From an uncultured Eubacteriales bacterium (GTDB lineage: Bacteria; Bacillota; Clostridia; Christensenellales; CAG-314), in contig CARAIG010000079.1 of NCBI GenBank assembly GCA_948938605.1, positions 15 through 64,014 of the forward strand: DNA of 64,000 nucleotides. Direction: 5' to 3'. The notes below the pieces were generated by a model, which was given only the letters and a program-made list of their open reading frames with translations, ran no database searches and was not told the DNA's origin. Shown in pieces: positions 7,949 to 64,000 of this stretch (position 1 is its first letter; each line of letters opens with the position of its first letter). Position numbers and translations under genes: made by a program.

Positions 7949-7992
7949 CCTGGATTGCTTCGCTTTGCTCGCAATACTCACCTGCGGTTCGT

Positions 7993-8022
7993 GGCGTTCG
8001 CAAGTCTGCGACTTGCTCGGCT
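7993..8022. repeat. Dispersed intergenic repeat core, copy A
   Basis: GGCGTTCGCAAGTCTGCGACTTGCTCGGCT. Its reverse complement matches 59673-59700 at 28 of 30 positions (two 1-nt indels). Confidence 0.7.
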
Positions 8023-8160
8023 AAGGACGGCTCAATAGAAAGTGACATCCACAACATAGCGCATTAAATCAACCCAACCGCATACAAGTAGGTTCGAGTT
8101 GCAGGTGCTTACATTCCAACAACTGTTCAATTAACGTCGCCGATTTTATCACAGAGCGAA

Positions 8161-8228
8161 GGTATGTTCGTTTTTCGCACTTTCGCAGTGAGTGCAACGA
8201 ACGGAGACGGAGAAAAAACGGACATACC
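8161..8228. other. Long imperfect hairpin in a convergent intergenic region
   Basis: 15-bp stem GGTATGTTCGTTTTT / AAAAACGGACATACC (one G.U) enclosing a 5-bp hairpin GCACT/AGTGC. No U-run follows on either strand. Confidence 0.5.
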
Positions 8229-8236
8229 TGAGCGAT

Positions 8237-9973
8237 TTACCACTTATCGCGAAGGAAGCGTTTTTCGTCTTCTTTAAGGTCAAGTCCCAACGTTCCGCCG
8301 GGGTTCATAAGGTTGTCGGGATCGAAGTGCTTTTTAAGCGTTTTGTAAATTTCCATTTGACGGGTACCGATTTGTCCTTCGAGCCAAGGCGCAAAGAATT
8401 TGCCTATACCGTGATGGTGCGAAATTGCCGCACCGCTCTTTTGAATGTGGTCGAGTATTCCGCTCCAATAGTTTACAAAGTCGTCCAGTTCGGTCATCTT
8501 TGCAATGAAAATGAAGTACAGGTTAGCCCCTTGGGGATAGCAGTGAGACATATGCGTCATACAAATCGTATTGGGACGGCTGTGGCAGTATTCGCGTACA
8601 AGTTGGTGTACGTGTTCCATTTGGCTCCAAGTAACCGAACATTCCAATGTGTCGGTCATTACGCCGAAGTCCTGCATTGTGTCGCGCAAATACGGGTCGT
8701 TAAAGCGTCCTTTTTCCCAAGCGGAAGTAACCATACCGGTCAAACTCATTGCCTTGTGCTTTTTGCAAATGCGTTTGACGTTTTTGGCTATGTTTTTGCA
8801 AAAGCCTTTTTCGCCGTCGGTAAAGCCAAGGAACAAGCAACGTTTGTGCGGTTTGTACCCCAAACCGTTAAGCATTTTGCCCAAAATACTTTCGGATACG
8901 CCGTACAAGTGCATCATCATATCCGTTTCCTCGGGGTCGCTCAAACGGAATACGCTGGGGCGTCCGCATTCGCACTGCATAATTTCGCGCGCCGCGTCCA
9001 TTGCCGTTTCCCAGTCCTTAAACATAAAACTGAACTTATAGTGGTTTTTCGGCATATGACGGAAAACTTTTAACGTTACGTGCGTCAGTACGCCGAAGGT
9101 GCCTTCACTGCCCATCATAATTTGGTTGATGTCCGGTCCCGTAGCCTTAGCGGGATACGGTTCGGTTTTAACAATGCCCGTAGGCGTTGCGTATTCCTGC
9201 GCTATTACTATATCTTCGATTTTACCGTAATAGGTGGAGTTTTGTCCCGCACCGCGCGTTACAGTCCAACCGCCGACGCTGCTGTATTCGAACGATTGCG
9301 GGAAGTGTCCGCAAGTGTATGCGCGTTTTGCGCCGAACAGTTTAACGGCATTATTGAGCGTTTCTTCAAGTTTAGGTCCGCTCATACCCGCTTCCACCGT
9401 TATGGTTTGGTCGGTTTCGTTAAAGTCGATTACTTTGTTAAAGTGCCTGCGCATATCCAAACTTACGCCGCCGCAAATGGGTTCAACGCCGCGAGTTACC
9501 GACGAACCGCCGCCGTAAACGTAAAGGGGGATTTTGTGCTTTGAAACAAACGCTACGATTTTTTCGATTTGTTCCTTGCTTTCGGGGTAAAGCACTGCAT
9601 CGGGAACGTTGTCCGCAATGTGTTGGCGAAGGCGCAGCAAGTCGAACATTGTTTTGCCGTACGCTACACTTAAACGGTCGTAGTCGTCGGTGGATATGTT
9701 GTCTTCACCGACAATTTCGCGCAGTCCTTTTAAAATATCGACGGACAGCCCGCAAGGTTTAGTCAATTTTACTTCTTCCAGTCCCAACGGTTCGTCGTAA
9801 TTTTTAAAATCGTCGTCGGTTAAGTGGAAAATTTCCTTCATCAACTTGTAAAGGTTTTCCTTAGGAATTTTATTAAACGACGGATCGCCCCATTTAAAAA
9901 TGGAACGGTAACTGCGCTTAGGCGGATTTTCAAGATACCATTTAGGCTCAAAGCCTTTATAGGGTTTGCTCAT
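8237..9973 (-). CDS. FAD-linked oxidase, alkyl-DHAP-synthase/GlcD-like
   Basis: 578 aa with an FAD_binding_4-like region (PLYVYGGGSSVTRG) and an AGPS-like C-terminal half (HHHGIGK). An AAAGGAG RBS precedes ATG 9973. Confidence 0.65.
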   Translation of the reverse strand: MSKPYKGFEPKWYLENPPKRSYRSIFKWGDPSFNKIPKENLYKLMKEIFHLTDDDFKNYDEPLGLEEVKLTKPCGLSVDILKGLREIVGEDNISTDDYDRLSVAYGKTMFDLLRLRQHIADNVPDAVLYPESKEQIEKIVAFVSKHKIPLYVYGGGSSVTRGVEPICGGVSLDMRRHFNKVIDFNETDQTITVEAGMSGPKLEETLNNAVKLFGAKRAYTCGHFPQSFEYSSVGGWTVTRGAGQNSTYYGKIEDIVIAQEYATPTGIVKTEPYPAKATGPDINQIMMGSEGTFGVLTHVTLKVFRHMPKNHYKFSFMFKDWETAMDAAREIMQCECGRPSVFRLSDPEETDMMMHLYGVSESILGKMLNGLGYKPHKRCLFLGFTDGEKGFCKNIAKNVKRICKKHKAMSLTGMVTSAWEKGRFNDPYLRDTMQDFGVMTDTLECSVTWSQMEHVHQLVREYCHSRPNTICMTHMSHCYPQGANLYFIFIAKMTELDDFVNYWSGILDHIQKSGAAISHHHGIGKFFAPWLEGQIGTRQMEIYKTLKKHFDPDNLMNPGGTLGLDLKEDEKRFLRDKW

Positions 9974-55946: not shown

Positions 55947-56128
55947 AAGATACCCCTTATAATTTAAGTAAACTTTGCAATTTTGTTGATTAGACAGTTT
56001 TTTTGTGTTAGAATAAAATAACAAGTTAACAAAAAAGGCATAAAACGGGTATTTTATTCTACATCTACTTATCATTATACTCTATTACGCCAAAATAATC
56101 AATACTTTAACGACAAAAGAGGTAATTT

Positions 56129-57580
56129 ATGGCATTTTGCGACAAGGAAAAACAACTTGTCACCGACGGTTATACCGTAATAGACAACAAGTTTTTTTTA
56201 AACTATCTTCCCGACGCACCCGAAAAGTGCGTTGCGGTATATCTTTTGGGGCTTGCCTTGTCTAACAGTTTAGGCGACGACAACAGCATTGACGCTATCG
56301 CGCAAAAACTGGGCATTACGCCGGACGACGTATTGACGGCGTACCAGTACTGGGACGAATTGGGGCTTGTAACCATTTCGTACGACGCTCCCCAACACGT
56401 AACTTACCGCGCTCTTAAAGACGGAACAAACGCTTTGCGCAAAATAAGCCCTTCCAAATACAAAAAGTTTTCGCAGCAGCTTCAAGACTTGTTTGCGGGC
56501 GGACGCCAAATAAACACGTCGGAATACGACGCTTATTACCAATTTTTGGAAGACACCGCTTTCGAACAGGAAGCTTTGCTTGCCGTAATTAAGTATTGCA
56601 TCGAATTAAAAGGTAAATCGATAGGTTACCAATACATACTTACCGTTGCGCGTAACGAAATGCGTAAAGGAGCAACAACGCTTGCGGTAGTATCGGAACA
56701 CCTTAACTGTCAGCAAAAGTACGATGAGGACTTAAAACTGGTATTTAAACAATTAGGCTCAAACCGTAAATTCGAGCACGCAGATCGCGAAATGTATGAC
56801 AAATGGGTGCGCGAATTGGGCTTTACGCAAGACGTAATAGTCAACGTTGCCAAAAACTGCAAAAACGGCGGAATGGCAAAACTGGACAGTATGCTGTGCG
56901 AATATTACAAACGCGGCGCAATGTCCGTTAAGGAAATAGACGACTACACTGCCGAAAAAACACGTCTATATGACCTTGCCAAAAACATAAACAAAACAAT
57001 CGGCGTATATTACCAAAACGTCGAAAGTATAATTGACGAATATTTAGCAGGTTGGCTTAACAAAGGTTTTGAAGACGAAACTTTGCTGGAAATTGCAAAA
57101 TACTGCTTTAAAAGCGGAGTACGTACCCTTGCTGGACTTGCCGACATAGTGGACAAACTGTACAAAAACGGCATAACCACGTCACAAGCGTTGCGCGCGT
57201 ACATTTCCGCAATAGCACAGCAGGACGAACTTATAAAAGGCATTCTTACAAAATGCGGACTTGCGCGTAAAGTTACGGCAAACGACAGACTGCTTTACAA
57301 AACTTGGACGCAAATATGGAATTTACCATATGAAGTAATTTTGTTCGCTTCGGAAAAAACCACCGGCGCAAACAACCCCGTAGCGTATTTAAACAGGATA
57401 TTATCCGACTACAAACAAGCAGGCGTTGCAACGGTAGAACAAGCCAAAGCGCACAAAAACATTGAAAACAAAACCACCGCTACAAAAGTGCTTATCGGCG
57501 GACGGGATATGGAAAGACGTCCTTACACCGACGACGAACTTAACGCATTGTTTACCGTATTGGACGAAACGGAGGACTGA
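56129..57580 (+). CDS. Replication initiation/membrane attachment protein (DnaD-domain, Firmicute DnaB-like)
   Basis: 483 aa with N-terminal winged-helix-like FLNYLPDA...AVYLLG and repeated DnaB_2/DnaD-like modules. It sits immediately upstream of dnaI with a TGATG overlap. Confidence 0.7.
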   Translation: MAFCDKEKQLVTDGYTVIDNKFFLNYLPDAPEKCVAVYLLGLALSNSLGDDNSIDAIAQKLGITPDDVLTAYQYWDELGLVTISYDAPQHVTYRALKDGTNALRKISPSKYKKFSQQLQDLFAGGRQINTSEYDAYYQFLEDTAFEQEALLAVIKYCIELKGKSIGYQYILTVARNEMRKGATTLAVVSEHLNCQQKYDEDLKLVFKQLGSNRKFEHADREMYDKWVRELGFTQDVIVNVAKNCKNGGMAKLDSMLCEYYKRGAMSVKEIDDYTAEKTRLYDLAKNINKTIGVYYQNVESIIDEYLAGWLNKGFEDETLLEIAKYCFKSGVRTLAGLADIVDKLYKNGITTSQALRAYISAIAQQDELIKGILTKCGLARKVTANDRLLYKTWTQIWNLPYEVILFASEKTTGANNPVAYLNRILSDYKQAGVATVEQAKAHKNIENKTTATKVLIGGRDMERRPYTDDELNALFTVLDETED

Positions 57581-58455
57581 TGAACCGACTACAACTGATA
57601 AAAAACGCTCAACGCATTATTGACGAGCGCCGTTTTAAAGCGGAAGAACAACGCGACATTACGCTTCAAACATTGCGTCAATACGACGAATTCAAGCTTT
57701 GCGAAAAAAATTTACGCAAAGCGCAAATTGACTGCGACAGCGCAAAAACAGCGCAATTCAAAGCGCAACTCAAACAAATACTTAAACAACGCAATCTTAC
57801 CGAACAAGATATTCAACCCCGCTACCGCTGTCCGCATTGCAACGATACAGGTTACATAGACGGAACAATTTGCAGTTGCTTGCAACAGGAAATTTGCAAG
57901 TTGATTACTGCCGAAAGCAACGTTATTAACAACGGATTTACGTTTGCCAATTCTACCGAAACGAACAAACACAACATTGCCGTTTACAACAAGGTTAAGC
58001 AAATGTGCGACAAAATGCAAGGCAACCTACTGCTTGTAGGCAATACCGGTTCGGGCAAAACGTACCTTATTACCGCTTGCGTAAACAGCGCAATAGCCCA
58101 CAACCGCAGTGTGCTGTTTACTACCGCTTATACGTTAAACTCTATGTGTTTGGACGCGCATTTATCCGACCACCGCACAAGTCAATCCATACTGGATACC
58201 TTAATCGATGTAGACGTATTGGCAATTGACGACTTAGGCACCGAAATCAACTACAAAAACGTAACCGCCGAATATCTGTTTGCAATAATCAATGAACGTA
58301 TAGCCCGCCGCAAACAGACCTTTATTTCGACAAATTTAACGCTTGCCGATTTGCGCGACCGCTACGACGAAAGGTTGTTTTCGCGGCTTGTAGACGCAAA
58401 CATAACTACGGTTGCCCAACTGCAAGGGGCAGACAAACGGTTAAAAAACAAGTAA
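57580..58455 (+). CDS. dnaI: Primosomal helicase loader DnaI/DnaC family ATPase
   Basis: Zinc-ribbon-like CPHCNDTGY...CSC and AAA+ motifs Walker A GNTGSGKTY and Walker B LAIDDLG. Confidence 0.8.
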   Translation: MNRLQLIKNAQRIIDERRFKAEEQRDITLQTLRQYDEFKLCEKNLRKAQIDCDSAKTAQFKAQLKQILKQRNLTEQDIQPRYRCPHCNDTGYIDGTICSCLQQEICKLITAESNVINNGFTFANSTETNKHNIAVYNKVKQMCDKMQGNLLLVGNTGSGKTYLITACVNSAIAHNRSVLFTTAYTLNSMCLDAHLSDHRTSQSILDTLIDVDVLAIDDLGTEINYKNVTAEYLFAIINERIARRKQTFISTNLTLADLRDRYDERLFSRLVDANITTVAQLQGADKRLKNK

Positions 58456-58462
58456 TATATTA

Positions 58463-58497
58463 GACGACGGAAAACAATTTCCGTCGTTTTTATTTTT
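58463..58497 (+). terminator. Rho-independent terminator after dnaI
   Basis: ACGACGGAAA-loop-TTTCCGTCGT followed by TTTTTATTTTTT. Confidence 0.75.
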
Positions 58498-58715
58498 TAT
58501 AAAATTACCTATTGAAAACATTATAAGGTCGGTTAAACTATAACGCTAATATTTGTCAATTAATTAAACATAATAAAAATGTATAGATATTTGCAATATT
58601 TTTGTCAATGCCTATTGAAATAATATTTTAAATGTGATACAATGTACAATCATTAAATAAATTTACAATTTGTGGTGTCGTTTTTAAGCCGACACACATT
58701 TTTTTGAGGTAACAA

Positions 58716-59417
58716 ATGAACTGGCTTTTGGCTTTTGCCGACAACGGCTTTAACTTTTTTGAAGGCTTTGATTGGCGAACGGAATTGGTATATCTGTTTA
58801 GAATAGTCCTTGCAGGAATATTAGGTTTTTTAATAGGCGTAGAACGCTCGCACAGACAAAAAGAAGCGGGTATGGGTACGCACTTTACGGTAGGACTTGC
58901 TTCGGCGCTGTTTACAGTAATATCCCTAAAAATAGGCGAAATTGCAAACGGCGACGGCGCACGCGTTGCGGCGCAAGTAGTAACAGGCATCGGTTTTTTA
59001 GGAGCAGGCATTATATTCTTCCGCCGCGAAAACTTACACGGACTTACCACCGCCGCTATTATTTGGTCGACGTCTGCAATAGGTATGGCTTGCGGAGCGG
59101 GAATGTACATTGTTTCGGTAAGCGGAACTGCGTTGATTATAGTCTTGCAATTAATACTACACACTGCCCCGTTTAAACGTCACGGTCAACGTTTGTTGCT
59201 TGTACGTTTTTACCATTCGGACGAATTTCAAAAGACATTGCAGTTGTACTTCGGCATTACGCAATTCCACCGTTACAAAGTAACGCGTACAGCCGACGGC
59301 AAACTACAAGTAGACGCGGTTATCCGTCCCAATCAAAATTACCACGCCGAAAAGATAAACAACTTTATCGAAAATAACGACGCAATGATTTCTATCGAAC
59401 GCTTGGAAGACTTGTAA
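58716..59417 (+). CDS. mgtC: MgtC/SapB family membrane protein
   Basis: MgtC N-terminal membrane domain (ILGFLIGVERSHRQKEAGMGTH, GIGFLGAGIIF) plus a soluble C-terminal domain. A GAGGT RBS is present. Confidence 0.8.
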   Translation: MNWLLAFADNGFNFFEGFDWRTELVYLFRIVLAGILGFLIGVERSHRQKEAGMGTHFTVGLASALFTVISLKIGEIANGDGARVAAQVVTGIGFLGAGIIFFRRENLHGLTTAAIIWSTSAIGMACGAGMYIVSVSGTALIIVLQLILHTAPFKRHGQRLLLVRFYHSDEFQKTLQLYFGITQFHRYKVTRTADGKLQVDAVIRPNQNYHAEKINNFIENNDAMISIERLEDL

Positions 59418-59441
59418 AAATATTTTTAGTCAACTAACTGT

Positions 59442-59481
59442 AAAAAGTCCTTTTCGCAGACAAACGAAAAGGACTTTTTTA
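59442..59481 (+). terminator. Rho-independent terminator after mgtC
   Basis: AAAAAGTCCTTTTCG-loop-CGAAAAGGACTTTTTT. Confidence 0.8.
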
Positions 59482-59672
59482 CAACCAATATTTTTATATT
59501 TAATAATATGTCTGCTTTTTCTGCTTTTTTCAATTCTTTGTTAACGTAATCCAAAAAAATACACAACTGTTAAAAGCATTAAACTAAAATAGATATGTCG
59601 CAAAGCCGTATAAGACAAGCGAACGCCCAGTTAGATGTAATTTAGCGAAGCGCGAAACACAGCAGGATATGT

Positions 59673-59700
59673 AGCCGAGCAATCGCAGATTGCGAACGCC
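59673..59700. repeat. Dispersed intergenic repeat core, copy C
   Basis: AGCCGAGCAATCGCAGATTGCGAACGCC matches the reverse complement of 7993-8022 at 28 of 30 positions. Confidence 0.7.
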
Positions 59701-59703
59701 CCG

Positions 59704-59744
59704 CTCCAAAAAAGAACGCCCTACTTTACTAGGACGTTCTTTTT
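59704..59744 (-). terminator. Rho-independent terminator immediately 3-prime of the tRNA-Thr fragment
   Basis: Minus strand: AAAAAAGAACGTCCT-loop-AGGGCGTTCTTTTTT. Confidence 0.7.
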
Positions 59745-59791
59745 TGGAGCTGATGACGGGGCTCGGACCCGTGACCTCCGCCTTACCAAGG
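59745..59791 (-). pseudogene. tRNA-Thr(GGU) 3-prime fragment (about 47 nt; att-site remnant)
   Basis: Minus strand reads CC-TTGGTAA-GGCGG-AGGTC-ACGGG-TCCGAGC-CCCGT-CATCAGC-T-CCA. This gives an anticodon loop with GGT, a 5-nt variable loop, a perfect T-stem, an acceptor 3-prime strand and CCA. Upstream sequence cannot form the D-arm or acceptor 5-prime strand. The T-loop has C at the universally conserved U55 position. Confidence 0.7.
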
Positions 59792-59900
59792 ACGTGTCAA
59801 ATTTCAATGGGAAGTGGTCTATCAACAAAAGCACAATATATAGTGGTAGATGGCGGTTAAATATAAGCAAATATAGCGGTTTTTGTGCGGTCAATAAAAA

Positions 59901-59944
59901 ATGGTAGTCAATGTTTTTCCGATTTGACTACCAATGACTACCAT
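59901..59944. repeat. Putative integrase arm-type binding sites (3 x TGGTAGTCA)
   Basis: ATGGTAGTCA at 59901-59910. Reverse-complement copies TGACTACCA at 59925-59933 and TGACTACCAT at 59935-59944. They lie between the tRNA fragment and the int gene. Confidence 0.55.
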
Positions 59945-59990
59945 TTTTGCGTTTTAGGCAGTTTTAGAACGGCTTAAAATGCCTTTACCG

Positions 59991-60021
59991 TAAAAGAAAA
60001 TCGACGGTTTCAAGCCGCCGA
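59991..60021 (-). terminator. Rho-independent terminator after the integrase gene
   Basis: Minus strand: TCGGCGG-CTTGAAA-CCGTCGA followed by TTTTCTTTT. Confidence 0.6.
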
Positions 60022-60026
60022 TTTTT

Positions 60027-61256
60027 CTATTTCTTAAACTTATCTTCCAACTTGTCCGTCGCTTGTTTGAAGTAAGAACGATCAACGCTGTTATAAGTTT
60101 TTATCGTCGTAGTTACGTCCTTATGTCCTAACAGTTGCTGTATGACTTTCGGATTTTCCTGCGCCTCGAACAACATACTCGAATATGTGTGTCGTATCGA
60201 ATGGAAGTGAATATTATATTTGTCTAATCCCGTCTTTTTCATTAACCGTTTGAACATTGATCGCGTTCCGTAATACGTCCGCAGTTCGCCGTCGTCGTTT
60301 GAGAATACCAAATCGTCGGGCGCGGTAAACGATATACCCGTCAAGGCTTGCCGTTTTTCTCGGTTTTCTTTCCACCGTAACAGCGACTTTTTAAGCATAG
60401 CGGGCATAGGCACTTCCCGAACGCTGGCGCACGTTTTCGTATCAGATATAACGGTTTTACGTCCTATCACGTTAAAATCGGCGTCAAATTCGGGTATCTG
60501 GGTAATGGCGTTGTCAATCACTATAACGTCGTTGACGAAATCAAAGTCTTTCCATTTAATAGCAAGCACTTCGCCTATACGCATACCGCCGAATAACTGT
60601 ACCATACAAAGCGGCTCGAAAAACGGATGATTGCTTATAACCTCAAAGAACTGTTTGCGCACGTCGATAGGAATAGCCTTGTAATCGTCGTCTTTCTTTT
60701 CCTTATGCTCTTTTGTGGATTTGACTTTACATTCCGCTACGGGGTTGCTGTCAACAAACTTGCTCTTTTTCGCATAGGCAAAGAATTGGTTTAGCGTAAA
60801 CTTCACCTTGCGAACGGTGGCGAGCGCATAACCGGCAAACAACATTCTGTTCAAAAGCGACTGAATAATCGTATCGGTTATCTCGTCAAGTTTCATATTT
60901 CCTATTTCGGGGTAAATATGATTTTTTGCGTTAGACAGTATGCGCTCGAAAGTACGGGGGCTGACTTCCGCACGTTTGAAAGTAATAATCCATTGGTGCA
61001 TCAGAACTTGCAACGTGTCGTTTTTCACGGAAGCGTGTCCGCCTTTCAGTTTCGTACCGAGCAGCGTCGTCATTTTAACCGCAACTTCCGAGCGCGTTTT
61101 ACCGTAAATAACCTTTCTTATACGTTTGCCGTCGTCATCATAACCGAGCGTAACGGAAGCCGCCCAGCGTTTTTCGTTTTCACGGTAGTAAATGCAACCT
61201 TCGTTATTGCCGCGCCGTGCCGTGTTTTTCTTTTTAGCGTTTGCCATTGCCGTCAA
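60027..61256 (-). CDS. int: Tyrosine-type site-specific integrase
   Basis: N-terminal arm-binding-like domain (GCIYYRENEKRWAASVTLGYDDDGKR), a SAM-like core-binding domain and catalytic residues (GMRIGE, HSIRHTYSS, LGH...TYNS). Confidence 0.85.
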   Translation of the reverse strand: MTAMANAKKKNTARRGNNEGCIYYRENEKRWAASVTLGYDDDGKRIRKVIYGKTRSEVAVKMTTLLGTKLKGGHASVKNDTLQVLMHQWIITFKRAEVSPRTFERILSNAKNHIYPEIGNMKLDEITDTIIQSLLNRMLFAGYALATVRKVKFTLNQFFAYAKKSKFVDSNPVAECKVKSTKEHKEKKDDDYKAIPIDVRKQFFEVISNHPFFEPLCMVQLFGGMRIGEVLAIKWKDFDFVNDVIVIDNAITQIPEFDADFNVIGRKTVISDTKTCASVREVPMPAMLKKSLLRWKENREKRQALTGISFTAPDDLVFSNDDGELRTYYGTRSMFKRLMKKTGLDKYNIHFHSIRHTYSSMLFEAQENPKVIQQLLGHKDVTTTIKTYNSVDRSYFKQATDKLEDKFKK

Positions 61257-61488
61257 CTCCTTCGCAATATGCGCTCATCTGCCAAGTAACGAAAGCAACA
61301 ATGCTGACGACCTGACGCTTGCCGACCTGTATAACCGGAAACGATCTGCTTTTCATCAAGGTGCGGACGTTATCGCGCCCCAAACCGGTCAATGTAACAA
61401 TATCGTCGCAGTCCAAGAACGATTTACCGTATTCGGCGCTTATGCGTTTCGCTTCCGCTGCTATAATGCTCTCGACGTTGACGCTCAT
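61234..61488 (-). CDS. Small HTH DNA-binding protein (excisionase-like, 84 aa)
   Basis: IVTLTGLGRDNVRTLMKSRSFPVIQVGKRQVV has an HTH_17-like pattern. Its ATG overlaps the upstream stop as ATGA, and its 3-prime end overlaps int by 23 nt. Confidence 0.6.
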   Translation of the reverse strand: MSVNVESIIAAEAKRISAEYGKSFLDCDDIVTLTGLGRDNVRTLMKSRSFPVIQVGKRQVVSIVAFVTWQMSAYCEGVDGNGKR

Positions 61489-61685
61489 TCGCTGTTTTCG
61501 CTTATGTGCAAATAAGCCAACAATTCGTCGTAATTGAGAAGCACCTTTTTCCCAATCGTGAAAGAGTGGATAATACCTTTGCGGCAAAGTTGCCGTATAA
61601 AGTTGCAGGTAATCGCCGTTCCGCTGTCTTTCTGTTTGATAAGTTGCAGCGTTTCCTTCACGGTGCGTAATCTTGCCATTAACAT
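61485..61685 (-). CDS. xis: Excisionase-family HTH DNA-binding protein (66 aa)
   Basis: TVKETLQLIKQKDSGTAITCNFIRQLCRKGIIHSFTIGKKVLLNYDELLAYL matches the HTH_17/excisionase pattern. A strong AAGGAGG RBS lies 8 nt upstream of ATG 61685. Confidence 0.7.
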   Translation of the reverse strand: MLMARLRTVKETLQLIKQKDSGTAITCNFIRQLCRKGIIHSFTIGKKVLLNYDELLAYLHISENSE

Positions 61686-61920
61686 ACCGTTTACCTCCTT
61701 GTATCGGATTTGAACGTAAACGACGGTTATTGTGGAAAACCGTGCAATCCGTTCCGTTTGCGTCCAAATGCAGTATAACCGAAGGTCTGTGCAAAATGCG
61801 AGTAGGCGGTGGTTTAACTTCTGCCGAGTTTTGCGCTAATTTCGTGTTATAAGCGAATGACTTACACACTACATGCGGGAGTGGATGAGTTAGTTGAGTA
61901 ATCATATTTTTCTCCTTGTC

Positions 61921-62124
61921 TTTTATTTGTCTTTCGACAACCAAAGAGAAAATCGGGAAAAGCCTACGCCGTCAAGGACAAAGAAAAAATCATAGCGTTA
62001 GCATTTTTCAATTTGCTGTTTTACGCTATGATTTTTTCCCTTGCTTGGGTTTACGCGCTATTCAGTTTTAATCTTACGGCAACGGCTTTTTCCGATATAC
62101 AACCCTGTCGAAAGACAAATAAAA
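61921..62124. repeat. Perfect 19-bp inverted repeat pair flanking 166 bp (with an inner 16-bp hairpin terminator)
   Basis: TTTTATTTGTCTTTCGACA (61921-61939) and its exact complement TGTCGAAAGACAAATAAAA (62106-62124). Inner GAAAAAATCATAGCGT (61983-61998) pairs with ACGCTATGATTTTTTC (62023-62038). Confidence 0.7.
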
Positions 62125-62125
62125 T

Positions 62126-62734
62126 TCACAGTTCCTTTAACTGTTTTATTCTGTAAATATGGTAATAAAAATTATTCTTCTTTAAGCCGAGTAAATTCAT
62201 AGCCGTTTCGGAATTTATGCGCTTTTCTATGTAGTCGCAGGCAACGGAAAGAAATTCGTCCGTATATTCGGTCGGGCGTCTGCCGAACTTAACACCATTA
62301 CAGATAGCCGCGCGTATGCCTTCGGCTTGCCGTGCTTTTATGTTCTCTCGCTCGTTCTCCGCAACGAACGATAATACCTGTAATACCACGTCCGAAATAA
62401 ACTTACCTACAAGCGTTTCGGCTTTCGTGCGTGTATCTAAAAGCGGCATATCCAAAACAAATATGTCCGCGCCGATAGTATTCGTTATATACGCCCATTC
62501 CGCTATGATTTGGTCATAATTACGCCCTAATCTATCTATGGATTTAATAACAAGCAAATCGCCGTTTTTAAGTTTTTTCAAAAGCCGTTTATACTCTTTC
62601 CGTTCAAAGTCCTTGCCGCTTTTCTTGTCCGAGAATATGCGGCTTTTCTCTATTCCGAACTCAATAAATGCGACTAACTGCCGTTCTAAATTCTGGTCTT
62701 TTGCCGAAACTCTTGCGTATGCGTATGTATTCAT
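62126..62734 (-). CDS. Small serine recombinase (resolvase/DNA invertase family)
   Basis: Catalytic N-terminus YAYARVSAKDQNLERQ, then DRLGRN and a C-terminal HTH; 202 aa. ATG 62734 follows an AAGGGAG RBS. Confidence 0.85.
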   Translation of the reverse strand: MNTYAYARVSAKDQNLERQLVAFIEFGIEKSRIFSDKKSGKDFERKEYKRLLKKLKNGDLLVIKSIDRLGRNYDQIIAEWAYITNTIGADIFVLDMPLLDTRTKAETLVGKFISDVVLQVLSFVAENERENIKARQAEGIRAAICNGVKFGRRPTEYTDEFLSVACDYIEKRINSETAMNLLGLKKNNFYYHIYRIKQLKEL

Positions 62735-62826
62735 AGTTTGCGCTCCCTTAAAAATAAGTAAAATTATCTTTAAGGATAGCAAAAATCGGGGCTTGCGTTT
62801 ACCGTTACAAACCCCGAAAACAAAAA

Positions 62827-62959
62827 TTTTAGTAAATGTGTACTTTTCCTAAAACACCCGAAAACACCGAAAATAATATAAATTTGCCCTTAAATTATAT
62901 CATAAAAGCCACTAACAACGCAAGAATTTGATTGTAGTTAAAGTACACATTTACTAAAA
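62827..62959. promoter_or_regulatory. Candidate invertible promoter (inverton): 20-bp perfect IRs flanking 93 bp
   Basis: TTTTAGTAAATGTGTACTTT (62827-62846) and AAAGTACACATTTACTAAAA (62940-62959). Inside, on the minus strand: TTGCGT (62923-62918), 18 nt, TATAAT (62899-62894). Confidence 0.55.
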
Positions 62960-62987
62960 CTCGGAACGCTGAAAAAAGGAGTTTTAT

Positions 62988-64000
62988 ATGAAGAAAAAAT
63001 TGCTTGTTACAGTTCTTTCTCTCGTGTGCGTAATCGTTTGTGCGTTCGGGCTTGTCGCGTGCGACAGAAATAACGAGCCGCCCGCGCACACACATACCTA
63101 TTCGGAAGAATGGCAAAGCGATGCAAACAACCATTGGCACGCGGCGACTTGCGAACATACGGACGAAAAAGGCGACGTGGCAGCGCACGTTGACGCAAAC
63201 AACGACGGCAAATGCGATATTTGCGAATACGAGCCTATAACCGTAAAAGTCGGCGGTACATACTATTTCTGCGAGGACGATATTACCGATGATTTAATTT
63301 ATATCGTTTTCCACCAAACAGGCAAATGGACTGACGACGAAAACAATTCGGGCGAGTACACGGTGTTCGGCAATACCGTTACTTTATACATAACGGTTGA
63401 AGGCGAAAAAATCGAGTTTGCAAGCGGCACGGTAAACGGCGACGATATTATTCTCGATTTAGGCGCGGACGTTACTTACCGCAAGGGCGAAGACATAGGC
63501 AATAAGCCACAAGAAAAAACTCTGCAATACGCGTTAAGCGAAGATAGAACGTATTACGTTGTCAAAGGCATAGGCGGGCTTACGGGAGAAATCGAAATCC
63601 CCGACGAGTGGAAAAGAAAACCCGTCAAAGAAATTGCCGAAAACGCGTTTGCCAACTGTAAAGACTTAACGAACATAACTATCGGTGCAAACGTTGAAAC
63701 CATAGGCAAAAAGGCTTTTTACAAGTGCGCTAATCTTACGAACGCAATTCTCGGCGAAAAAATAGAAACCATTTTTGAAAGCACGTTTGAAGATTGCAGA
63801 AAACTTGAAAGCATTACTATACCGGCTACGGTAAAAAGCATAGAAAAACACGCATTTACTTGCTGCCTTGCTTTGAAAGACGTTCATTATACAGGTACGG
63901 CTTCCAAGTGGGCGCAAATAGATTTCTATTACGATTTCAACTCACGTGACGCACAGGTTTCCAACCCGTTAAGCGACAATAATATTTATATCGTCGGAAA
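62988..64000 (+). CDS. BspA-type leucine-rich-repeat lipoprotein (partial; runs off the window)
   Basis: Hand-translated open frame from ATG 62988 (AAAGGAG RBS) to the window end, with no stop. Lipobox GLVAC, a His/Cys-rich HTHTY...HWHAATCEHTDEKGD...DGKCDICEY module and LRR_5 repeats (IAENAFANCKDLTNITIGANVETIGKKAFYKCANL...). It is absent from the ORF track because it has no stop codon in the window. Confidence 0.75.
   Translation, partial: MKKKLLVTVLSLVCVIVCAFGLVACDRNNEPPAHTHTYSEEWQSDANNHWHAATCEHTDEKGDVAAHVDANNDGKCDICEYEPITVKVGGTYYFCEDDITDDLIYIVFHQTGKWTDDENNSGEYTVFGNTVTLYITVEGEKIEFASGTVNGDDIILDLGADVTYRKGEDIGNKPQEKTLQYALSEDRTYYVVKGIGGLTGEIEIPDEWKRKPVKEIAENAFANCKDLTNITIGANVETIGKKAFYKCANLTNAILGEKIETIFESTFEDCRKLESITIPATVKSIEKHAFTCCLALKDVHYTGTASKWAQIDFYYDFNSRDAQVSNPLSDNNIYIVG

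Follow-up and report, generated by a model that had tools for sequence, protein, structure and literature searches.

A probable promoter inverton beside a small serine recombinase gene in an uncultured member of the Eubacteriales

Promoter invertons, short DNA segments whose inversion turns a promoter toward or away from a gene, are well known and are operated by serine recombinases, such as Hin and Mpi, or by tyrosine recombinases, such as FimB/E, RecV, and Tsr. The Hin, Gin, Cin, and Pin invertases act on a segment of 1 to 4 kb that includes or adjoins the recombinase gene, and they require a Fis-bound enhancer. The fimS switch of E. coli, the substrate of FimB and FimE, is a 314-bp invertible promoter that controls an adhesin; its orientation also affects the fimE transcript, an effect called orientational control. 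Sin and beta recombinases work at compact sites of less than 100 bp, helped by an HU-type bending protein, and beta recombinase can also invert DNA. Here, we analyze a locus of an uncultured Eubacteriales bacterium, found in a 64,000-nucleotide stretch of contig CARAIG010000079.1 (assembly GCA_948938605.1; this whole stretch is the window, and all coordinates refer to it). In this locus, a 93-bp promoter-bearing segment lies between the gene for a small serine recombinase and a divergent gene for a leucine-rich repeat (LRR) lipoprotein, referred to below as the cargo gene. An original prediction, made from the sequence, had read the arrangement as an inverton. We consider it very likely that the locus is a genuine promoter inverton. 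The repeat and its sites, the two natural orientations, the linkage of the sites to the recombinase, and the conservation of promoter and hairpin are direct observations; the identity of the flipping enzyme, the activity of the promoter, termination, and the ON/OFF phenotype are what we infer from them.

Phase-variable surface proteins shape colonization, immune evasion, and phage susceptibility. To our knowledge, the mechanistic understanding of such proteins comes almost entirely from Bacteroides and Proteobacteria. The locus would provide a complete switch (sites, enzyme, promoter, insulator, and cargo) defined at base resolution in Clostridia that are known mostly from metagenome-assembled genomes.

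The segment occurs in both orientations

A perfect 20-bp inverted repeat, TTTTAGTAAATGTGTACTTT (62827 to 62846) and its exact complement AAAGTACACATTTACTAAAA (62940 to 62959), brackets the 93-bp interior at 62847 to 62939, and every coordinate originally given for the locus agrees with the sequence. The repeat is the only perfect inverted repeat of at least 20 bp with a spacer of at most 300 bp in the window, and by our own estimate the chance expectation of such a repeat is about 2e-5. The arms extend to 28 nt (62827 to 62854 and 62932 to 62959), with 89% complementarity.

An exact-sequence look-up found the recombinase sequence in 728 blocks of the assembly collection. Among 13 copies with an identical recombinase, the window included, 7 have the orientation seen here and 6 carry the interior reverse-complemented between unchanged flanks. 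The flipped interiors (L005 to L010) match at 92 or 93 of 93 positions, and in L009 the inverted interior is the only change. Elsewhere, these exact copies are essentially identical: there are no substitutions over 1,000 nt on the cargo side and a single-nucleotide polymorphism (SNP) plus one 10-bp indel over about 3,050 nt on the other side.

A pair at one insertion site comes from a variant of the element, with a recombinase at least 90% identical. Nine of its 10 copies have the window orientation, and one is flipped (L259, which is the same contig as L269). Flipped L269 and unflipped L267 have the same chromosomal flank, which holds TIR_2 and Band_7 genes, and outside the segment they are identical at 2,253 of 2,253 and 7,713 of 7,721 positions (about 99.9%). 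The two arms of this variant have just 9 identical bp in common, GTGTACTTT, so strand exchange must have taken place within those 9 bp, which contain the predicted centre of the site. Near-identical interiors also lie in opposite orientations in diverged species (L028 versus L029 and L077 versus L079). Independent assemblies thus contain both forms, and on this point the proposal of an inverton has held up well. Two other members of the family, P0018 and P0048, showed a single orientation among the 10 and 6 contigs, respectively, that had sufficient upstream sequence. The metagenome matches listed belong mostly to a different human-gut subfamily, and we did not use them to count orientations of the element found in the window.

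One could argue that the two orientations are an artefact of assembly, since inverted repeats can mislead assemblers and the evidence comes from contigs throughout. However, the perfect arms, of 20 bp (9 bp in the variant), are shorter than both the final k-mers and the reads of the assemblers named in the contig labels (k103 to k141; SPAdes NODE and scaffold names). Both orientations were also recovered within one study and pipeline (L234 versus L005 to L010 and L267 versus L269), as well as across diverged species. With repeats shorter than the k-mers and both states within single studies, we regard an artefact as extremely unlikely.

The recombinase and its crossover sites

The recombinase gene (62126 to 62734, minus strand; ATG at 62734, ribosome binding site [RBS] AAGGGAG at 62749 to 62743) encodes a 202-amino-acid protein that matches PF00239 (Resolvase), the catalytic domain of serine recombinases, at 1.5e-27. 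All of the 36 relatives compared share the catalytic residues R8, S10, D67, R68, and R71. Among solved structures, Sin/Bin3 is nearest in sequence (1.2e-27), followed by gamma-delta (6e-20) and Tn3 resolvase; Gin scores 6e-13. The protein reached no NCBIfam equivalog or invertase cut-off. The original prediction cited Hin/Gin-type enzymes as a precedent, but these comparisons do not make the protein specifically one of them: with best matches to Sin and gamma-delta and no cut-off reached, its sequence places it among the small serine recombinases but outside the Hin/Gin subfamily. Foldseek aligned 191 to 204 columns, the full length of the protein, to the DNA-bound chains of gamma-delta, Tn3, and Sin.

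Serine recombinases bind as a dimer to each site and make a 2-bp staggered cut at its centre. The two arms of the repeat look like such sites. Each 28-mer is nearly palindromic, matching its own reverse complement at 22 and 20 of 28 positions. The proximal site, on the recombinase side (62827 to 62854), reads TTTTAGTAAATGT-GT-ACTTTTCCTAAAA, with its centre GT at 62840 to 62841, and the distal site, on the cargo side (62932 to 62959), reads TTGTAGTTAAAGT-AC-ACATTTACTAAAA, with its centre AC at 62945 to 62946; the sites are mutually inverted, and their centres lie 105 bp apart. A logo built from 57 unique sites of relatives, TTKYAGTAAAAGT-GT-ACTTTTACTRMAA, is a perfect 13-2-13 dyad in which the central GT alone is asymmetric. 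Copies in opposite orientations have swapped their inner half-sites; in the distal site, the outer half (62947 to 62959) is fixed on inversion, and the inner half (62932 to 62944) flips with the segment. This is the layout of serine-recombinase crossover sites, with the cleavage positions predicted from the dyad. A search of the 64-kb window gave no second site pair.

Do the sites belong to this enzyme? We scanned species-representative genomes and, of the 226 relatives obtained, retained 80 loci, most of them in Christensenellales-like and Pumilibacteraceae Clostridia from the guts of mice, chickens, rabbits, and humans. About 35 of these loci have, upstream of the recombinase gene and at a fixed distance from it, a site pair with core AAAGTGTACTTT / AAAGTACACTTT; a homologue of the tyrosine integrase found near the window locus occurs within 6 kb in only 2 of the 80. 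The sites therefore travel with the serine recombinase. This linkage bears on the idea that another enzyme flips the segment, either the tyrosine integrase carried by the element or a recombinase whose gene lies elsewhere. That integrase is only 1.5 kb away, and a dyad with central asymmetry would also be compatible with a tyrosine-recombinase core site. However, 78 of the loci have no integrase homologue within 6 kb, and yet the site pair keeps its fixed distance from the serine recombinase gene; a copy in Anaerocaecibacter muris adjoins a large serine recombinase instead of an integrase; and the core of the site varies in step with the recombinase subgroup, being altered to AAAGGTGTACCTTT in a distant one. 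We find it quite improbable that another enzyme does the flipping.

The resemblance to Sin and gamma-delta raises a different question, whether the sites are a res-like or autoregulatory region of a resolvase that maintains the element, with inversion as a functionless by-product. In Tn3-family transposons, res lies just upstream of the resolvase gene and overlaps its promoter region. The sites here have a comparable position, and Sin/Bin3 and gamma-delta resolvases are the best-scoring matches of the enzyme. Against this, the two sites are equivalent, complete dyads in inverted orientation and not subsites of a graded series; neither orientation is rare, with a ratio of 7:6 in exact copies; the sites are flanked, in conserved geometry, by a promoter and a promoter-less cargo gene; and most relatives have the module without the integrative element. 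Inversion as a mere by-product thus appears very improbable to us.

Taking the adjacent recombinase as the enzyme of a promoter inverton, we imagine that a dimer of the 202-amino-acid protein would bind each 28-bp site, that the two dimers would synapse, and that a 180-degree rotation of subunits at the central dinucleotide would invert the promoter-bearing DNA. Given what is seen with Sin and beta recombinase, an HU-type bending protein would be the obvious candidate to assist synapsis at 105 bp.

Two observations concern the DNA around the sites. The minus strand has two or three repeats of the motif TTTTCGG(N)G at 9- to 10-bp intervals (62809 to 62876), and the motif is conserved in relatives; the repeats adjoin the inner half of the site downstream of the promoter and recur just outside the proximal site. 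They could be a bend or an accessory-protein site. We also considered A-tract phasing of the interior as a looping aid and dropped it, as the AAA/TTT periodogram fell short of significance (p of about 0.07) and the family mean had no peak at 10.5 bp.

Promoter, terminator-like hairpin, and lipoprotein gene

Within the segment, a promoter is predicted on the minus strand (62894 to 62923), composed of a -35 element TTGCGT (62923 to 62918), an 18-nt spacer, and an extended -10 element TGaTATAAT (62902 to 62894). The positions and the TATAAT were described correctly at the outset and the TG at 62902 to 62901 was overlooked; "near-consensus," the wording used then, was generous for the -35 element, as discussed below. 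Diverged relatives keep the motif TTGnnn-N17/18-TGnTATAAT within the segment. The promoter of the window is aimed at the recombinase gene, and, judging from promoter direction alone, the lipoprotein gene should be OFF.

The cargo gene (62975 to 64000, plus strand; RBS AAAGGAG at 62975 to 62981, ATG at 62988) is truncated by the end of the window. Its product is a BspA-type LRR_5 lipoprotein, the N terminus of which has a signal peptide and the lipobox GLVAC; full-length copies elsewhere have 506 to 1,067 amino acids. The distal site and the cargo ATG are separated by 28 nt, in which the RBS is the sole content. Throughout the family, the cargo ATG lies 22 to 45 nt past the 12-nt core of the distal site (22 to 36 nt in lipoprotein loci). 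Such tight, conserved spacing leaves no room for a separate cargo promoter, and only the RBS fits, in keeping with the earlier view that the gene has no promoter of its own between the right repeat and the RBS. At the level of sequence, the segment thus combines an internal promoter with a promoter-less gene downstream.

Relatives mostly have as cargo a lipoprotein, the domains of which are LRR_5, Big_2, or unannotated; in the distant subgroup, the cargo is an Eco57I-type or EcoRI-type methyltransferase. The full range of 506 to 1,067 amino acids is found among otherwise near-identical elements (L225 to L228 and L253 to L268), and contigs often break within the gene. This suggests rapid variation in repeat number on top of an ON/OFF switch.

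Between the switch and the recombinase gene lies a terminator-like hairpin on the minus strand (62781 to 62817). It has an 11-bp stem (62817 to 62807 / 62796 to 62786), a 10-nt loop, and a T5 run (62785 to 62781), with a folding energy of -17.4 kcal/mol and a z-score of -2.8. Most relatives have a GC-rich hairpin followed by T5 to T8 at the equivalent place, and the stem sequences of different loci are unrelated (TCGGGG..., GCGCGGAACG..., GTGCAGAGAG..., GGCTCCCGC...). Conservation of the structure without conservation of its sequence supports the terminator proposed originally. The hairpin and T run may serve as an insulator for the OFF-state transcript. Directly past the T run is an extended -10-like motif, TGcTATCCT (62773 to 62781, minus strand). 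The pattern of a T run, G, and nTATnCT is conserved across relatives, with TGGTATAAT at that place in the distant subgroup, and we suggest that this motif is a weak promoter belonging to the recombinase gene itself.

It is possible to read these elements differently, with the switch mainly controlling the recombinase, or yielding a short regulatory RNA, and the lipoprotein transcribed from elsewhere. The commoner orientation does face the recombinase gene, in 20 of 31 species representatives (the divergent cargo gene is faced in 11) and, for this element, in 17 of 24 copies. The hairpin is weak or absent in some relatives, making readthrough into the recombinase gene plausible, and transcription in the OFF state would yield a discrete RNA about 100 nt long. 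However, no other promoter fits into the conserved interval between the distal site and the cargo ATG, readthrough cannot supply the cargo transcript because the upstream neighbor is divergent, and the conserved extended -10-like motif past the terminator could serve the recombinase. Control of the recombinase and control of the adhesin are not mutually exclusive; a switch without a role for the lipoprotein gene strikes us as unlikely.

For the promoter inverton, one can envision the following cycle. In the window state, transcription toward the recombinase gene would end about 100 nt on, at the hairpin and T5, leaving the lipoprotein OFF, and the recombinase would be made from its weak extended -10 promoter past the terminator. 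In the flipped state, the -10 element would lie at 62887 to 62892 on the plus strand, the 5′ untranslated region, about 90 nt long, would extend through the distal site and the RBS, and the lipoprotein would be ON. As a speculation, leaky termination in the window state might yield more recombinase and so bias the switch toward ON, much as in the orientational control of fimE.

Several points weigh against this interpretation. The -35 element agrees with TTGACA at just 3 of 6 positions, which is why a consensus promoter scan did not list the site. A convincing hairpin is missing in L011 to L013, L025, and L028 to L032, so insulation is not universal. As to switching, each contig shows the majority orientation of its sample, and the exact-sequence element shows no change of orientation within any of its 7 insertion contexts; the exact copies alone therefore indicate recent inversion events, not necessarily continuous switching. 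The case for ongoing switching within a population comes from the variant element and not from the strain of the window. As to the enzyme, Pfam found no C-terminal helix-turn-helix (HTH) in the recombinase, and a putative C-terminal DNA-binding domain is seen only in an AlphaFold2 model of moderate quality (mean pLDDT of 69), in which three helices at residues 159 to 201 have pLDDT values of 85 to 95. Finally, 105 bp makes a very tight loop for a serine-recombinase tetramer, and no accessory factor or site was identified at the locus.

Carrier element, cassette family, and known systems

The switch had been thought to be carried on an integrative element, and this is borne out by near-identical copies in at least 8 chromosomal contexts, of which 7 hold exact-sequence copies. 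Genes and domains in the flanks include MgtC, IMS, YpsA/DUF4874, P-II, Fic, Flg_new, GDPD, and TIR_2. The element encodes a tyrosine integrase (60027 to 61256, minus strand; Phage_integrase, Phage_int_M, and Phage_int_SAM_3 domains) and a 66-amino-acid excisionase-like HTH protein (61485 to 61685, minus strand), the matches of which are weak (HTH_17 at 0.0015 and TIGR01764 excise at 0.0017, both below the cut-off). Its hosts are mouse-gut Clostridia (Pumilibacteraceae or Christensenellales-like). Since the element is found at many chromosomal sites with essentially no change in sequence, a putative ON/OFF adhesin module can move between strains. On the integrase side, the element ends at 59740 to 59770, where identity with copies in other contexts stops at about 59740 to 59745; the other end lies beyond 64000. 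Beyond the LRR gene, other copies encode a sigma-70 region-4 protein along with several unannotated genes, or carry another set of genes. One contig of the metagenome-assembled genome GCA_949109915.1 is 100% identical to the window.

A few features of the element deserve mention. Next to the excisionase-like open reading frame (ORF), on the integrase side, gene calls place an 84-amino-acid ORF (61234 to 61488, minus strand). Gene callers differ over 61234 to 61944, giving either one 223-amino-acid ORF or the excisionase-like ORF plus the 84-amino-acid ORF in another frame; as the same sequences receive these differing calls, the 223-amino-acid ORF is probably spurious. Past the stop codon of the recombinase gene and before the next gene, a long nested hairpin of about 200 nt (61910 to 62135) folds at -78.7 kcal/mol (z = -6.9), with outer 19-bp repeats at 61921 to 61939 / 62106 to 62124 and inner repeats at 61983 to 61997 / 62023 to 62037. 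The outer pair was considered as a second inverton and rejected, having one orientation in all compared copies and folding as a hairpin; the structure could be a terminator or insulator, an oriT, or an origin-like structure. Between the integrase stop codon and the element end, at about 59952 to 59961, 10 bp (CTGCCTAATT) are missing in the window and in the identical contig L002 and present in 11 of 11 other copies. On the minus strand of 59740 to 59800, the element end resembles the 3′ part of a tRNA (...GGTCACGGGTCCGAGCCCCGTCATCAGCTCCA); ARAGORN found no tRNA in the window, Rfam found none at the element end, and over 56000 to 64000 Rfam returned only subthreshold miRNA and snoRNA noise. The last 25 nt or so at the integrase side have several SNPs between insertion contexts, as an att region might show.

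A cultured mouse-gut isolate, A. muris (Pumilibacteraceae), has a 96%-identical recombinase, an interior with one substitution, LRR_5 cargo, and the window orientation, and it makes experiments possible. In this copy (L252; GCA_965647185.1), the large serine recombinase next to the cassette has 506 amino acids, and the small recombinase is annotated at 228 amino acids, with a different C-terminal end.

The distance between sites varies little in the family. We sorted 127 cassettes, taken from both genomes and metagenomes, into 51 clusters with interiors less than about 70% identical. Among the 48 clusters with a centre-to-centre spacing of at most 120 bp, which are not phylogenetically independent and for which the metagenome pattern admitted 90 to 120 bp only, 3 have 94 bp, 7 have 103 to 105 bp, 2 have 107 to 108 bp, and 36 have 113 to 118 bp, with none at 95 to 102 or 109 to 112 bp. 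The classes, at about 94, 105, and 115 bp, are roughly one helical turn apart, and length is held within 1 to 2 bp while sequence diverges. Such constancy fits a need for both sites to lie on one face of a very small loop. Outliers at 107 to 108 and 118 bp show that it is not absolute, and the distant subgroup has spacings of 157, 166, and 175 to 176 bp. The segment was at first called unusually short; the survey contradicts this, its length being normal for the family, and more than 75% of catalogued invertons are below 300 bp (PMC11602134).

Other branches of the family have arrangements of their own. In the distant subgroup (L077, L079, L086, and L090), recombinases are 55 to 58% identical, the spacing is 157 to 176 bp, the core is the altered one, and the promoter lies before the Eco57I/EcoRI-type methyltransferase genes; these are candidate phase-variable methylases, with L077 and L079 oppositely oriented. 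A related element, with recombinase P0018 and Big_2 lipoprotein cargo, has three sites and two tandem promoter cassettes in L236, L238, L241, and L243 (at about 1165 to 1420 in the coordinates of those loci). The extra 106-bp unit carries its own TTGACA-N17-TGcTACAAT promoter, and the middle site has AT, not GT, at its centre; other copies of the P0018 element have a single cassette. In the human-gut metagenome subfamily (L105 to L224; for example, L106 at 7988 to 8737 of that locus), recombinases are about 50 to 57% identical, the core is the same, and the spacing is 114 to 116 bp. There, the recombinase gene is upstream and reads toward the cassette, and the cargo is downstream on the same strand; the same interior occurs in both orientations. 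Its cargo is varied, comprising secreted and membrane proteins; in L106 it is a 162-amino-acid ORF followed by an 868-amino-acid P-loop (GSGKT) protein. A phage origin was considered as well and set aside: the 18-nt site-pair pattern had 14 matches in viral contigs, consistent with chance, none of them with a recombinase homologue.

Taken together, these findings lead us to a broader proposal, which we offer tentatively and would put at somewhat less than an even chance. The cassette in the window may belong to a family, large and apparently undescribed, of self-contained promoter-flip cassettes in gut Bacillota, each composed of a Sin-like recombinase, two 28-bp dyads, an internal extended -10 promoter, and an insulating terminator. 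The sites would be kept about 9, 10, or 11 helical turns apart (about 94, 105, or 115 bp), even where the interiors are unalignable, as expected for minimal-loop synapsis without a remote enhancer. Such a portable switch would travel on mobile elements and stand before genes for adhesins, membrane proteins, and restriction-modification methylases. The near-helical-turn spacing raises the question of how a serine-recombinase tetramer synapses sites about 105 bp apart. At about 250 bp plus a 0.6-kb gene, the cassette is compact and could be useful as a genetic switch.

Our literature search on the site motif and on serine-recombinase invertons in Clostridia and Christensenellales found no description of this motif or recombinase family. 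Groups of invertons have been linked to groups of invertases (PMC11892184), and the Clostridia-dominated group highlighted in that work is linked to tyrosine recombinases. A 2026 paper described small serine recombinases beside defence genes in Bacillota, leaving their function open and only speculating about inversion (PMC13552941); if our proposal is true, it gives a function to some of them.

How, then, does the locus compare with the systems with which we began? Like Hin/hix, the system of Salmonella flagellar phase variation, and Gin, Cin, and Pin, it has a small serine recombinase and two inverted dyad sites of about 26 to 28 bp with a 2-bp crossover centre, and, as with Hin, a promoter on the inverted segment would drive an adjacent surface-protein gene in one orientation. 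It differs from the Hin architecture of a kb-scale segment, recombinase gene, and Fis-bound enhancer (PMC3798978): the sites are 105 bp apart, the arms enclose 93 bp, the recombinase gene is not part of the segment, and the enzyme is far closer in sequence to Sin and gamma-delta than to Gin (1e-27 versus 6e-13). No enhancer is evident at the locus, though one would not be recognizable from sequence here.

With Mpi and the polysaccharide promoters of Bacteroides fragilis, the locus shares a serine recombinase, short repeat-flanked promoters, and, as proposed here, ON/OFF switching of the surface of a gut commensal. Mpi, however, comes from a different phylum and acts in trans on many scattered promoters, whereas here there is one recombinase per cassette; the protein scores 40.6 bits against the Mpi model NF009949 (cut-off, 272), and the one site pair is alone in the 64-kb window. 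The fimS switch is likewise a short promoter switch for an adhesin, and fimE orientational control parallels a promoter that faces the recombinase gene. Unlike the fim system, which is chromosomal and depends on tyrosine recombinases, integration host factor (IHF), and Lrp, the locus has a serine recombinase on a mobile element.

Sin (of Tn552/pI9789), the closest solved relative by sequence, and beta, from Firmicutes plasmids, are, like this enzyme, small serine recombinases of Firmicutes. In the Sin site (PMC2428073), as in that of beta, each res or six copy pairs a crossover site with a distinct accessory site, mainly for resolution; here, two equivalent dyads are mutually inverted, and the observed product is an inversion. 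In general outline (an inverted repeat, a promoter, a nearby invertase, surface cargo, and gut bacteria as hosts), the locus resembles the invertons collected by PhaseFinder and DeepInverton. Its quantized spacing, insulating terminator, and portability mean that the family could prove, if experimentally confirmed, to be a distinct variant of these switches.

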